Origin: Amoebidium appalachense
Taxonomy: Eukaryota > Protista > Ichthyosporea
Assembly: GCA_963693365.1 (NCBI GenBank)
Contig: CAVNZM010000001.1
Span: forward strand, 2,868,907 to 2,932,906
Length of the DNA stretch: 64,000 bases
Reading direction: 5' to 3'
The position numbers and the translations under genes were made by a program. The notes beneath the pieces are model-generated. The model made no database searches. It saw nothing but the letters and a program-made list of their open reading frames with translations, and had not been told where the DNA came from. Of the stretch, positions 441 to 64,000 are shown piece by piece; positions within the stretch are counted from its first letter, which is position 1, and every line of letters begins with the position of its first letter.

Positions 441-17942
<17,502 letters not shown>

Positions 17943-18873: not shown

Positions 18874-27156
<8,283 letters not shown>

Positions 27157-34149: not shown

Positions 34150-42439
<8,290 letters not shown>

Positions 42440-44205: not shown

Positions 44206-46457
44206 TTAATACGGACGGTAGTTGGGTCCCTGCTGCTGCTGCTGCTGTTGGGGTGGGCGATTCTGGCCCTGCATGCCCATATTTGGTTGCATGCCCATAT
44301 TTGGCTGCATGCCCATATTTGGCTGCATGCCCATATTTGGTTGCATGCCCATATTCTGCTGCGGCATGCCCATTCCCATATTAGGCTGCTGGTACCCCAT
44401 GCCCATCGGCTGCATGCCCATATTTGGCGCCATGCCCATATTTGGCGACATGCCCATGCCCCTTCCCATCTGCTGCTGCTGCATCCCCCCATACCCCATG
44501 CCCATATTTGGCTGTTGGTAGCCCATCCCTCCCCCGTATCCCATGTTTCCTCCGCCGCCGCCCATGCCGCCCATTGTCATATTTGGACTACCCATGGGTG
44601 CACCCCTCCCCATCGGTGTAGTAAGGCCCGGTTGGGGGCTAATAGACATATTTGCCATTCCGGTCTGCATCTGCGCAACATTGGGGCTAGGTCCCCTCTG
44701 AGTGGTACCCGGACTCAACCCCCCCACAGGGGAAACCCCACCGCTCTGACCCCCCTTCTGCGCCGCCAAAGTCGCCAACGTCTGTTTCTGGTTTCCTTTT
44801 CCCTCGCTGCTCAGCACGTTACCAAACAACTCCTTGTTCTTGCTCCATAGGTTGTCACCGCTCGGAATACCCCCCAATGGATCGGCCTGTTTCTGACTCT
44901 GCTGTGCCCCTGCCTGCCCGGGATTACCCGCCCTGACGTTTGGTGACGTTGCTCCCGCAGGACCCACGGGAACAGGAACGAGGGGTTGGGAGCTTGGAAT
45001 AGCCATAGAAGGGGGCGGTACCGCTTTGGTCTCTGCGTATTGCTGTGTTTGTTCCTTGTGAAGTGTTTCGAGGGTGGAACGGAGGGTGGTGGGGCAACCG
45101 GCAAAGATTCCACTGTCACTCATGCTGATGGGGAGGGGCTCGAGGAGGTCGAAGTGGCCAGTGTCGTAGAAGAGGGTGTAGAAGACACGGGTGGCGCCTG
45201 TGTGCATGATACAGAGAGAGGAGGGCATAGTGTGTCAGGGCACGACGGGGAATGCCAGTGTGTGAGAGGGGTACGACATTGGTAAGGAGAAGAGGAGGAG
45301 GCTGGGTGGGGGTGGGGGTGTGGGGGGGGGGAGAGGGGGAAGAGAGGTTCTCTGCTGTACAGCATCTGCAATATCGTTGCCACACAAGCAAGAACCTGCA
45401 CAAGAACCCGGACACACAGATGTAGGCGTCCCTCCCCACACACCCACCCACACACCCACCCACCCACCCACCCACCCACCCACCCAAAATCACACACACA
45501 TGCACACACACACGCACTCACACACACACAAGACACAAAACTACATATTTCCCATACCTGTTCAACTGAGCAGAGCTTCGTTACAAATATGTGTGGCGGG
45601 CGGGGTTGAGTTGGGTTTTTTGTTGTTTGTTTGTGTGTGTGTGTGTGGGGGGGGGGGGTCGTTACAAATATGTGTGGCGGGCGGGGTTGAGTTGGGTTTT
45701 TTGTTGTTTGTTTGTGTGTGTTTGTGTGGGGGGGGGGGGGGGGGGGGGGGGGGGGTGGGTAGGGGGTGGGGAGAACCCAATAACAAGTACATATTACCAA
45801 CGTTTAACTTACGCAACTGTAACAAAGAACACCAGTACAGAGCGTACATCTTTACTAATGCCCTGGGCACATGGGCAGATTCATTCACATTATCCACAAT
45901 ACCCAAGATCCACTCCCTTTGAGCAAGGGGTGGAGGGAGGAGGATGAGGAGGAAAAGGAGGAGGAGGAGGAGGAGGGGGAGGGGGAGGCTGGGGGGGGGG
46001 GGGGGGGGGGGGGGATCATTTACATACCAGGGGGAGACACCATACCCGAGACATCCAACCCTCCACCCAAGTTATGAGGCCGCTCGCGCACAAACACAAG
46101 AATGTAATTGTCGCGAAAAGCCCCTGCCGACATCTCCGAAATTCCCAAATACTGTTGGTTCTGAGTCATCTTGGTCACGTACTGCTGTATGAGCTGGAGG
46201 GGGTTTTTCACGTCGGGGAAAAGCATTTCTGCCTCCATCATAAGGGGTTCACGCAGTTGGGGGATGTTGGCGGCGTGTTCGTAGAGAAACTGGAGAAGGG
46301 ACCGACGCTCACTAGAAACATCCACGGCCTAATGTTTTGGAATTTTGGGTGGAAGGGGGGAAGAGCGGGGGGAGGGGGGGTTTGAATGCGGAACACGGTA
46401 CGAAGTACGCATGCACGATGAGAAGCATGGTGCAGGACACATGCAAAGGCAAACATT

Positions 46458-46515
<58 letters not shown>

Positions 46516-46832
46516 AGGAGGAGGAGGGATGAGAGGAGGGGTGGAGGGGGTGGAGGGGAAGAAAGGGAGCGGGGGGGGGGGGGGGGGGGAGGAGGGGGGG
46601 GGGGAGCGGGGGGGGTTAGAATGTGTGAAAGAGCAAGAAGTACTATTTTTATTAAAGAGCATGCATCATATGCAGAGCCCACGGGCCGGGAGAGGTGGGG
46701 ACAGGGCAGGCTGTCACCTGTGGTGTCCCCCCTCCCTTCCCCCCACCCACCCGCCCACCCACCCCTCCCCCCCCACCCCGGCGCCCCCCTCCCCCCCCCC
46801 CCCCCCCCCCCCCACCACCACCACCACCACCA

Positions 46833-47517: not shown

Positions 47518-48461
47518 GGGGGGGGAGAAGGGAGAATGTGTGTGTGTTTGTGGGTGAGTGTGTGTGTGTGTTGGGGGGGGGGGGGGGGGGGGGGGAGGGG
47601 GGGGGGGGAGAGGGGGGGGGGGGGGGGGAGGGGGTGATGTATGTGTTAGAGGGTTGGAAATGTGGAGGAGACAACAAAGAGCAACAACAAAACGTCACGA
47701 AAGTGGGAAATCCAAAATCAAACAATTTAAGCATGCAGGCAGAAGACACTTGAACAGAGCCCATCATCAGGGGGGTTCCCATGCCTCCACAAAAGCATGG
47801 GTTTCGGCTCTTTAACCCCTCACGGTCTTCCCAACCCATACTTTGTTTCAACAGCAATAGACGAGTCCACCCGTCCTGGCCAAAGACAAGTAGGGTTGTT
47901 CAAGGAGCGGCAATCTAAGAAAACAGAGTCTGAAAAGGGGGGAAAAAAAAAAAGAAAAAAAAAAGGCGGAGAAGTAGAGCATAAGCCGGGCTTCTACAAA
48001 GCTCCCCGACTCCCTAACCTATGGAGAAGGGGAGGGAGGGAGGGGCTCGGGGAGGGGGGGGGGGGGGGGGGGGGGAGGGGGGGGGGAGGGGAGGGGGTAG
48101 GGGGGGGGGGGGGGGGGGGGGGGGGAGGGGGTTGGATGTGTGTGTGTGTGTGTTGGGTGCGTGGGTGGGTGGGTGGGCATGTGTGTATGTGTGTGTGTTG
48201 GGGGGATGGGGGGGAGGGGGGCAGGGGGAGGGGGAGAACGTGTGTTGTGTGTGTGAATGTGTTTGTGTATGTGTGATGTGTGGTGCTGCGCAAGCGTGTT
48301 TGTGCCAGTGTGTGGAGTTAGGAGTGGAGCAAGAGGAATAAATGGCAATTCAGCTAACATTCTCCATGCTTGCGCAACATTAAGTTCACGTGTGACACAT
48401 CCAAGAACCCACCACCACCCCTCCCCCACCATCCTCCCTCCCTCTCCTCCCCCTTTCCCCC

Positions 48462-57580: not shown

Positions 57581-58170
57581 ACACACACACCCCCCCCCCC
57601 CCCCCCCCCCCCCCCAACACACACACACACACACACACACACACCCGCCTGCCCGCCCGCCCGCTCTGCCCCCTCTCGGTGTAGCCCGTAATTGTAATAC
57701 TGAAGCGTCATGGAGTGTTTTTGAATCATCGGATGTGTGTATGTGTGTGCGTGCGTGCGTGCGTGCATGGGCGTGCTCGCATATGTGCACATGTGTGTGT
57801 CTGTGTCTGTGTGTGTGTTTTGGGGGGGGGAGGGGGGGGTTGAGCCAGATGGCAATGCGCATGCAGTAAAATCACGATGTAAGAGTTAATGGTCATTTGG
57901 CTGCACTTCTCATTGAGATGATCGAATGACGTATGAATGAATGCCAACGAAAACCTTAATAAACATAAATAGATTAACTGATCCATTCACACTTAACCAT
58001 TATTAGTGGAAAACATGGTCCCCCCCCCCTCCCCCCTCCTCTGCTTACTGTGCAACTTGTTAATCCCCGGAATTTCAACTGCCCTTGCCTGTTGCGTGCT
58101 CACGTAAGTAACCCTGCTCATCTCTGATCAGACGGTTGACCCACCCATGTACGTTCAAGTGAATCAGTTT

Positions 58171-58256
58171 CAGTATCTGAGTTGGGTTTGTGGCGAGGTG
58201 AATGGGTCGAAACTCGGGTACTGTGGATCACGTGGGGCCCCCCTGAGGATGGGCTC
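58171..58256 (+). ncRNA. Candidate non-circularly permuted hammerhead ribozyme
   Basis: Stem III 11 bp (58171-58181 with 58213-58223), GAAA 58209-58212, CUGAGGA 58243-58249. Predicted cleavage 58183/58184. Activity untested. Confidence 0.55.
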
Positions 58257-58301
58257 TGCTTTTATGCTAATGTGTACTTCGTACTTTATGACACATTCAA
58301 A
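58171..58301 (+). mobile_element. Short dispersed repeat, family 2 copy b (hammerhead-like core + tail)
   Basis: CAGUAUCUGAG-UU-GGG...GGGUC-GAAA-CUCGGGUACUG...CCC-CUGAGGA-UG-GGCUC. The tail ends TTCAAA + poly(C). Confidence 0.8.
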
Positions 58302-63455: not shown

Positions 63456-63839
63456 TGTGTGTGAAGGGGAGTCTTATGCCACATGTGGGGACGACCAGTC
63501 TTAATTAGTGAAGAGAAGAGATACATGTGAAAGCACTGCACAAAAACTGTGCACTGACAAGTGTTGAGAGCTAAAGTTGCAGTGGTCACCAGAAACATCA
63601 TTAAAAGTAGTCGTCGTGTTGTAATAGTCATCATGTTTATGAAGATCAATGGTTATCTTATTAAGTCAACCAATTTATAGAAATCATCATGTGGTTAGAT
63701 TTAACGAGTTAGTTGGAAAGTCCCGGTACCAAGTCGATTCTTATACGAGCATGATGGGTGGGGAGGCGGGGGGTTGGGGGGGGGGGGGGGGGGGGGGGGA
63801 GTGGATAGGGATTTATGTGGAATGTGGAATTTGTGTGGT

Positions 63840-63965
63840 ATGAAGTACGCATACACGATGAGAAGTATGGTGCAGGACACATGCAAGGCAAACATTCAAG
63901 TATGCAACATCAGCAATCCGCATTGTGTGCGTGATAAGCAGAGCCCATCCTCAGGGAGGGCCCAA
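63840..63965 (-). repeat. Family 2 repeat fragment (CUGAGGA strand + tail)
   Basis: Links the two parts of family 2: it has TAAGCAGAGCCCATCCTCAGGG (as at 4902-4923) and the tail shared with 24221 and 46381. Confidence 0.78.
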
Positions 63966-64000
63966 GGTGGGGGGTGGGGGGGGTGGGGTAAGGGCAGGAG

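Follow-up and report, generated by a model that had tools for sequence, protein, structure and literature searches.

Repeats dispersed over a 64-kb stretch of Amoebidium appalachense DNA (the window, meaning the whole stretch that was analysed) contain what is probably a real and active hammerhead ribozyme wired in a new way, its core being, on the sequence evidence, likely split between A9 and G10.1 by one helix and one hairpin. That the predicted fold is of the hammerhead type seems nearly certain; the split core is very probably its working form, self-cleavage can be expected with only slightly less assurance, and an origin from Penelope-type elements is reasonably probable, these four judgements not being independent of one another. 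The reading as a whole, namely that the repeats are high-copy, 5′-truncated and poly(C)-ended 3′ ends of a Penelope-like element carrying a predicted four-block hammerhead that cuts after GUU, is modestly favoured. The first-pass annotation of this DNA had likewise seen a non-circularly permuted hammerhead inside a dispersed retroelement-like repeat, and in this it was right. It had called the topology novel; the S-G-C strand order, however, is already published as type SGC (PMC10085705), and what is new is the split core together with its genomic, non-animal setting.

Hammerhead core and strand order

All four loci of the first-pass annotation (58171–58256 on the forward strand; 47844–47756, 4990–4907 and 1866–1776 on the reverse strand) are present where it had placed them, and inspection of the sequence bore out the CUGANGA, GAAA and U-U blocks as well as stem III. 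The window was scanned on both strands with a descriptor covering all six orders of the hammerhead blocks (stem I of at least 3, stem II of at least 4 and stem III of at least 4 bp, with 0–2 nt after A9). Three sites were returned, at 58182 (+), 47834 (−) and 4984 (−), with stem III of 11, 10 and 6 bp, respectively; every one of them shows the A-B-C order originally proposed, that is, S-G-C (cut site, GAAA, CUGANGA). Across 200 dinucleotide shuffles in 1-kb blocks, the mean was 0.015 S-G-C sites and 0.045 sites of any order. The fourth copy (1856, −) was not caught by the six-order descriptor because its two innermost stem III pairs are G·A and G·U. A 19-mer around CUGANGA occurs five times in the window, as compared with 0.09 expected, the fifth occurrence leading to an additional truncated copy at 63957–63939.

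The core comprises CUGANGA, GAAA, U-H and the A15.1–U16.1 and G10.1–C11.1 pairs, and stems I, II and III stand in register with it (3, 6 and 11 bp in the 58-kb copy). Covariation is present in stems II and III and absent from proximal stem I, whose three base pairs are invariant and whose distal part lies beyond a bulge of 10–14 nt, a feature that counts against the assignment. The cut sites first predicted for the 58-kb and 47.8-kb copies (Table 1) are identical under both of the folds weighed below. None of the Rfam thresholds for hammerhead types I–III was reached, the best score being 12.3 bits for Hammerhead_1 as against 34, and S-G-C is not a cyclic strand order, as would be required for these types. 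The Hammerhead_1 model also aligns the upstream stem II described below, albeit with an E value of 7.1, far from significance by that threshold. For the window as a whole, no hammerhead appears among the Rfam matches listed (150 of 181), which are simple-repeat noise from miRNA models only.

A core probably split between A9 and G10.1

In the fold as first drawn, GGCUC, following a 2-nt UG insert after CUGANGA, served as a strand of stem II. That stem II is probably wrong, since the strand preceding GAAA has a better Watson–Crick partner about 35–45 nt upstream of the cut, outside the coordinates previously given: GACUC/GAGUC in family 1 and GACCC/GGGUC in family 2, where the full pairing is GACCCA/UGGGUC. 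The UG, rather than being an insert, probably begins a separate helix, as the bases after CUGANGA-U would close a long outer helix (P4). From 5′ to 3′, the predicted fold runs through P4b, P4a, the hairpin P5, the 5′ strand of stem II, one purine, the linking helix, a spacer and stem III; then through U-U, stem I, a bulge, distal stem I, a 3-nt linker, stem II and GAAA; and finally through stem III, the linking helix, stem I, CUGANGA, U, P4a, CUC and P4b. The domain, which spans 58104–58263 (+) and 47904–47749 (−), is about 160 nt long and common to both families, and its seven helices are complementary in collinear order in both. The linking helix, predicted to connect stems I and II at their distal ends through 5 and 7 bp of differing sequence in the two families, covaries, as does P4b (7–8 bp).

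All copies that contain the CUC internal loop of P4 (58254–58256 and equivalents) have it unchanged, although the split-core fold leaves it unpaired. It makes an alternative stem II possible, and it could equally form pairs with a GAG located in the bulge of stem I. An initial model, in which a type-SGC hammerhead and an extra hairpin made up a four-way junction, was abandoned after the upstream partner of stem II had been found. AACC/GGUU in family 1 can form either that extra hairpin or distal stem I; family 2 permits distal stem I only.

Table 1. Repeat copies in the window and predicted elements of the split-core domain in the 58-kb copy
Feature	Position	Strand	Remarks
Family-2 copy between two C-runs	58037–58300	+	Only copy in the window with every core helix intact
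Family-1 copy	47635–47929	−	Domain 47904–47749; G10.1 at 47867; predicted cut 47833/47832; A·C mismatch at second pair of stem II
Family-1 copy, sharing 92% identity with the 47.8-kb copy	1655–1951	−	G10.1 at 1889, C3 at 1790; stem III broken in its inner part
Family-2 copy, truncated about 7 nt before the cut	4815–4990	−	Without P4 5′ strand, P5 and upstream stem II strand
Truncated copy	63800–63967	−	Block C followed by a different 3′ body
71-nt 3′ fragment	46614–46684	−	Begins just past the CUGANGA position; C-run end
78-nt 3′ fragment	46381–46458	−	Flanked by C-runs
84-nt 3′ fragment	24222–24305	+	Flanked by C-runs
Outer helix P4, 5′ strands	58104–58114	+	P4b 58104–58110 with 58257–58263, 6/7 pairs; P4a 58112–58114 with 58251–58253, 3/3 pairs
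Hairpin P5, directly 5′ of G10.1	58115–58137	+	Weak in the 58-kb copy; 9–10 bp in family 1
Stem II 5′ strand from G10.1 (GACCCA)	58138–58143	+	With 58203–58208, six Watson–Crick pairs
Linking helix of stems I and II, 5′ strand	58144–58150	+	With 58230–58236, 7/7 pairs
Block S	58171–58186	+	Stem III 5′ strand; U16.1 at 58182, U17 at 58183; predicted cut 58183/58184; stem I GGG
Distal stem I, linker, stem II 3′ strand, GAAA, stem III 3′ strand	58197–58223	+	Distal stem I 58197–58199; GAAA 58209–58212
Linking helix 3′ strand, stem I C-run, CUGAGGA, U, P4 3′ strands	58230–58263	+	CUGAGGA 58243–58249

The upstream stem II is Watson–Crick in both families and includes one compensatory pair (U-A to C-G). 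In a MAFFT alignment (A2) of three sequences, the near-complete copies from the two related families, pairing occurs in 89% of 136 cells and a change on both sides in 6 of 46 pairs, as against at most 52% paired and two double changes when the structure is slid by 1–3 columns; since the structure was derived from these same sequences, and MAFFT misregisters some family-2 helices, the figures amount to support and not to a probability. The covariation in A2 also represents a single divergence, which counts against it. When the upstream 90 nt were shuffled 20,000 times, stem II alone reappeared in 2962 and 3278 cases (15–16%, i.e. commonly by chance), and stem II together with the linking helix and P4 in 71 and 57, the descriptor used for this having been written after the fold was known.

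Variants in public runs bear on the same point. Seven majority differences from the 47.8-kb copy, defined as those reaching at least 97% of depth in runs X1, X2 and X4, fall in the domain among the variants listed, six of them within split-core helices and the seventh in the bulge. Five of the six improve a pair (four turn G·U into Watson–Crick pairs and one turns the A·C of stem II into A-U), and the sixth weakens A-U to G·U. In the fold as first drawn, one of the seven lies in a helix, where it turns C-G into U·G. A diverged contig from run X14 keeps the core and adds two improved pairs, U·G to A-U and U·G to C-G; against this, its final P5 pair is open, and three mismatches have removed outer stem III pairs.

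The RNA might alternatively be a plain type-SGC hammerhead, with GGCUC after the UG insert, or might switch between both folds. The downstream stem II can pair in all four copies (4–6 bp), appears alongside P4b in the minimum-energy fold of family 1 and is enabled by the invariant CUC; a short helix resembling the ‘I’ helix of type SGC is possible just past it, and Eckert et al. tolerate one or two inserted nucleotides in the part of their description available (PMC10085705). In the 1.8-kb copy, the two duplexes are less than 1 kcal/mol apart, with −7.1 downstream and −6.4 upstream, and nested folding is not stronger than in shuffles (z of +1.0, −1.1 and −1.0). In family 2, however, the upstream stem II is better by 4.6 kcal/mol. 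Furthermore, the downstream stem shows no compensatory change, GGCUC being fixed and its partner varying by wobble; at 47807, the letter found in the majority of the family makes the downstream C-G a U·G but mends the upstream stem; and a plain SGC fold leaves the conserved 60 nt upstream unexplained and is impossible, as to its stem II, in the Naiad examples discussed below. Type SGC has an uninterrupted block C, with the stem II strand 1–2 nt from A9, and here the comparative evidence favours the upstream strand. A plain or switching hammerhead thus appears unlikely, the downstream stem II being possible as a minor fold.

Copies and their insertion sites

The two families had been taken to be otherwise different; they align with each other over about 190 nt, 60 of which precede the start originally given. 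With nhmmer, the family-2 copy had an E value of 6e-42, that copy being itself part of the model. Altogether, eight elements of 71–297 nt were found. A C-run of at least 7 lies within 30 nt of the 3′ end in all eight, and the 5′ end falls at a C-run of at least 8 in six, the background for runs of that length being 4–6%. The elements thus share a kind of 3′ end, and combine 5′ truncation with a bias for insertion into microsatellites, as Penelope-like elements do. Tandem type I units, as in retrozymes, were not found: the copies in the window are dispersed, single and not of type I.

A further short 3′ end, similar to that of family 2 and followed by a C-run, is located at 40455–40500 (+) and was in the scoring profile; a weak match at 8423–8351 has no hammerhead core. 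Counting both strands, the 64 kb hold 155 C-runs of at least 10, far more than the approximately ten repeat copies explain.

In public runs, the numbers of contigs placed on the family-1 copy were 2044, 2459 and 2880 for the DNA runs X1, X2 and X4, respectively, and 3 for X14. Among the public runs listed as containing the family-1 stretch none was of RNA, a result without bearing on expression. Summed depth is not equivalent to copy number; the number of distinct contigs, together with two copies in 64 kb, would suggest a family size in the thousands. Depth is several-fold higher over the 3′ half of this copy, and near 47820 it is lowered by mismatch to the reference. With regard to the partial tandem, pseudo-LTR arrangement of Naiad and Chlamys elements, single contigs show go-back joints through a C-run, and the fragments 46684–46614 and 46458–46381 follow one another; a full element was not seen in this material. 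Record 9 of X14, a 465-nt aquatic-metagenome contig, keeps the domain (47734–47923, 20 differences) and is diverged in both flanks, by which measure the predicted ribozyme is a conserved module.

The window is eukaryotic in character; its introns are long, and C-runs and CA repeats are numerous. Host genes recognized by Pfam are ATG7 (−, approximately 0.4–15.9 kb), VASt (25–27 kb), GH114 (30–32 kb), Dcc1 (35–42 kb), FtsJ (52–55 kb) and, weakly, Zip (63 kb). The copies lying in introns in sense orientation, namely 1655–1951 and 4815–4990 within ATG7 and 47635–47929, which precedes an exon-like stretch at about 47490–47330, all carry damage to a core helix. The 58-kb copy, which is intact, is not clearly intronic. 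With three cases only, this damage may reflect selection against cutting of the pre-mRNA. The P4b strand of family 2 at 58104–58109 (+) coincides with the splice-donor consensus, and the 5′ extensions of family 1 (loose ends at 47931) resemble a pyrimidine tract followed by CAG; both may be due to chance. Introns in terminal repeats are known for Penelope-like elements.

Relation to known hammerheads

Type SGC has been shown to cleave (Eckert et al. 2023, PMC10085705). In the available text of that study, it was found only in metatranscriptomes and in none of the genomes of known organisms, and CUGAnGA and its flanking paired strands are assumed to be inseparable. With HRIMA-1 and its variants, as far as they are described there, the Amoebidium repeats share the order cut site–GAAA–CUGANGA, the core nucleotides, the U after A9, a linker of about 3 nt between stems I and II, and a helix joining the far ends of these stems, one base past a 5-bp stem II. 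They differ in that the stem II strand, which directly follows CUGANGA in type SGC, would lie upstream of the cut, P4 and P5 being inserted, and in their length of about 160 nt as compared with at most 104 nt. The published SGC search pattern would miss the repeats because, as given in that text, it requires a stem I of at least 4, a linker of at most 8 and CUGAUGA(U)G.

Hammerheads in retrozymes and in the terminal repeats of Penelope-like elements (PMC4209133; bioRxiv 2026.07.22.740005) likewise reside in short non-coding repeats tied to Penelope-like elements, and the portions of these papers available propose cutting, circularization and reverse transcription of more than one unit. Those hammerheads are of type I, often minimal and dimeric, and arranged in tandem, whereas the present repeats are dispersed, truncated and knotted. 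The pseudoknot (pistol-like) hammerhead of Zhan et al. (2024, PMC11300833) also has an extra helix and a pseudoknot tying stem I to the stem II position; in the form described there, however, A9 and G10.1 belong to the same strand, and the block order is a circular permutation.

The literature searched (among others PMC13725137, PMC6765202, PMC12192606, PMC3088659, bioRxiv 2021.04.23.441226 and bioRxiv 2026.09.16.752053, in the text available and apart from figures, subscription papers and preprint supplements) contained no hammerhead split between A9 and G10.1, no hammerhead in Amoebidium and no follow-up of type SGC. Pattern scans of public contigs gave one locus in metagenomes (L001, which lies in prokaryotic coding sequence, lacks stem III and is a match by chance), seven loci in genomes and, in viral contigs, none with the strict pattern and at least 120 loci (of about 160) with the loose one. 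All 121 loci examined with the split-core descriptor failed it, and a single locus among all 128 had stems I and III, without stem II. Variant hammerheads are reportedly also treated by Weinberg (2015), Lunse (2017) and Forgia (2023), which may bear on novelty.

Relation to Penelope-like elements

The first-pass annotation had suggested a retrozyme or SINE-like element. This came close, but the anatomy, with 5′ truncation, poly(C) ends and the position of the ribozyme, is rather that of Penelope-like 3′ ends, and the repeats are likely, judging from these features, to be the 3′ end of such an element. Among 180 of the 508 open frames of the window that were scanned, there was no Penelope-type protein (GIY-YIG, CxC motif or Penelope-type RT).

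The closest parallel is found in Naiads. The 3′ ends in File S5 of Craig et al. (2021, PMC8557442) were inspected by eye for 26 of 54 elements, over the last 300–450 nt, names being assigned by position before the next header. In eight of the 26 displayed ends, the same order of helices is seen in unrelated sequence: three from Acropora, Morbakka-2, Pomphorhynchus (in part), Darwinula-4 and two from Octopus; the fold was not seen in the displayed part of the other 18. An Acropora example has stems I, II and III, linking helix and P4a of 6, 6, 11, 10 and 7 bp, respectively. In an octopus end, the partner of the strand preceding GAAA sits upstream of the cut, and in the coral, jellyfish and octopus Naiads displayed no stem II can form after CUGANGA. 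The P5 loop of Morbakka-2, UGGCC, is the same as that of family 1. Craig et al., in the parts available, describe no such fold, listing cases of ‘HHR_core’ and ‘HHR_half_core’, and report no canonical hammerhead in Naiad or most Chlamys elements. Naiads share with the repeats 5′ truncation, high copy number and microsatellite targets; according to the same available text, however, they are reported only from animals and target (TA)n, whereas the repeats occur in an ichthyosporean and at C-runs. What links the repeats to Naiads is the position and wiring of the predicted ribozyme, no Naiad protein having been encountered in the 180 frames scanned. In the material displayed, a twister-like motif can be made out by eye close to the 3′ end of Naiad-1_Movir, and another motif is conserved at this position among several bivalve Naiads. 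Ribozymes of other kinds may fill the same 3′ slot.

As for insertion, the repeats resemble Chlamys, for which 5′ truncation and (C)n targeting have been reported (Craig et al. 2021, PMC8557442). A protist host range and, in several consensi, an end of AAC plus C-run are further common traits in the available part of that work. Inspection of 29 of the 49 Chlamys consensi over their last 300 nt revealed no split-core hammerhead, two of the consensi available carrying a canonical type I hammerhead, and ‘Amoebidium’ does not occur in the available supplement, in which Chlamys is not reported from ichthyosporeans. The repeats combine a ribozyme like that of Naiad with an insertion target like that of Chlamys, which counts against the assignment.

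The ribozyme might also be as described here and the repeat a SINE-like passenger of LINE-type machinery. LINE mobilization fits 5′ truncation and a homopolymeric 3′ end, an intact-looking LINE is present in the window, and the starts of the two family-1 copies nearly coincide, some 295 nt before the end, as is expected of a short unit. Yet seven contigs per run (X1, X2) extend further 5′, no tRNA-derived head was found (ARAGORN, no genes; the copies may be truncated), and the position and wiring of the ribozyme match those of Naiad 3′ ends. The LINE in the window ends in (CA)n and was rejected as mobilizing partner because it has no sequence in common with the repeats. Such a passenger is rather unlikely, and a Penelope-like 3′ end remains the preferred reading.

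The LINE itself (8930–13620, +) lies antisense within an ATG7 intron and comprises ORF1 (9142–10353) and ORF2 (10304–13540; RVT_1, E value 3e-28), with an ORF2 N-terminus that is endonuclease-like by eye; its 5′ end carries about seven tandem units of 18 nt each. The LINE protein matches, at 99% identity over 70% of its length, a transcript-derived protein that bears the label Amoebidium parasiticum, the next relative being 46% identical. Transposable elements account for about half of an Amoebidium genome according to the available text of PMC11244446, in which a whole-word search found none of the words Penelope, PLE and SINE.

Proposed mechanism

On the preferred reading, the core would be assembled from four blocks: the G10.1 strand, the cut site, GAAA and CUGANGA. 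Stem II would form with the upstream strand; the chain would leave the core after A9 via one U into P4, and hairpin P5 would lead back to G10.1. Such a break after A9 is plausible because single inserted bases are known at this point, namely the U of type SGC and an unpaired base in hammerheads of Penelope-like elements, in the descriptions available. As in type SGC, the linking helix would fasten stems I and II together at their distal ends, and G12 and the 2′-OH of G8 would catalyse the reaction as in other hammerheads (PMC11300833, in the part available).

The elements likely cut their own RNA with the predicted ribozyme. The cut after G-U-U would process, and perhaps circularize, the element RNA: cuts in two tandem copies would release a unit RNA, possibly ligated into a circle. 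For hammerheads in terminal repeats, cutting of the precursor with possible ligation of the ends, and reverse transcription of the circle into more than one unit, have been proposed by Cervera and de la Peña in the available text of PMC4209133. The proposal is in keeping with the three copies that extend across the cut site and with the absence of a step in depth at this point, an observation that uncut RNA or template equally explains. A Penelope-type RT might then use as primer a nicked (G)n strand to which the C-run of the element is paired, which would fix the 3′ end and allow copies to pass through the cut site; priming on (G)n is suggested because the 3′ ends of the repeats are fixed and because a (C)n bias is reported for Chlamys, in the text available.

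An inactive structure or relic in the shape of a hammerhead, serving for protein binding or packaging or merely inherited, would leave the same uncut sites and the same lack of a step in depth at them. A core helix is damaged in three of the four copies, a hairpin burying CUGAGGA competes in the family-2 fold, and the A9/G10.1 split has no experimentally tested precedent in the literature searched, within the scope given above. CUGANGA, GAAA and U-H are nevertheless unchanged in both families, in the four runs (among the variants listed) and in the Naiad cases, and the helices covary. This reading is improbable because a constant core with covarying helices is the pattern expected of a catalytic core. 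Nor is the arrangement at all likely to be chance in a low-complexity genome: the richness in C- and G-runs makes GGG/CCC pairs cheap, but local shuffles hardly ever yield an S-G-C site, stem III reaches 10–11 bp in exact register, and 121 public loci with similar core words all failed the split-core descriptor. The 19-mer count, the descriptor scan and the alignment-slide test already contradict chance, the probability of which is negligible.

Implications

Hammerhead classification assumes three unbreakable blocks and hence six orders; a break between A9 and G10.1 would be a fourth break point, outside this scheme. The split-core form also lies outside current search patterns, so that standard searches miss such ribozymes. 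Non-circular hammerheads, known only from metatranscriptomes in the available literature, would now be represented by many copies in a eukaryotic genome. The finding bears, in addition, on why Naiad-type elements seemed to be without the hammerhead that other Penelope-like elements carry. One may speculate, quite tentatively, that an active four-block hammerhead older than animals was inherited by Naiads and by an undescribed (C)n-targeting ichthyosporean lineage, that it cuts and circularizes the element RNA, whose C-run would prime on nicked (G)n DNA, and that the activity of these elements feeds the many poly(C) tracts of this genome. Its occurrence in an ichthyosporean would either date the split core to before the animals or indicate transfer.
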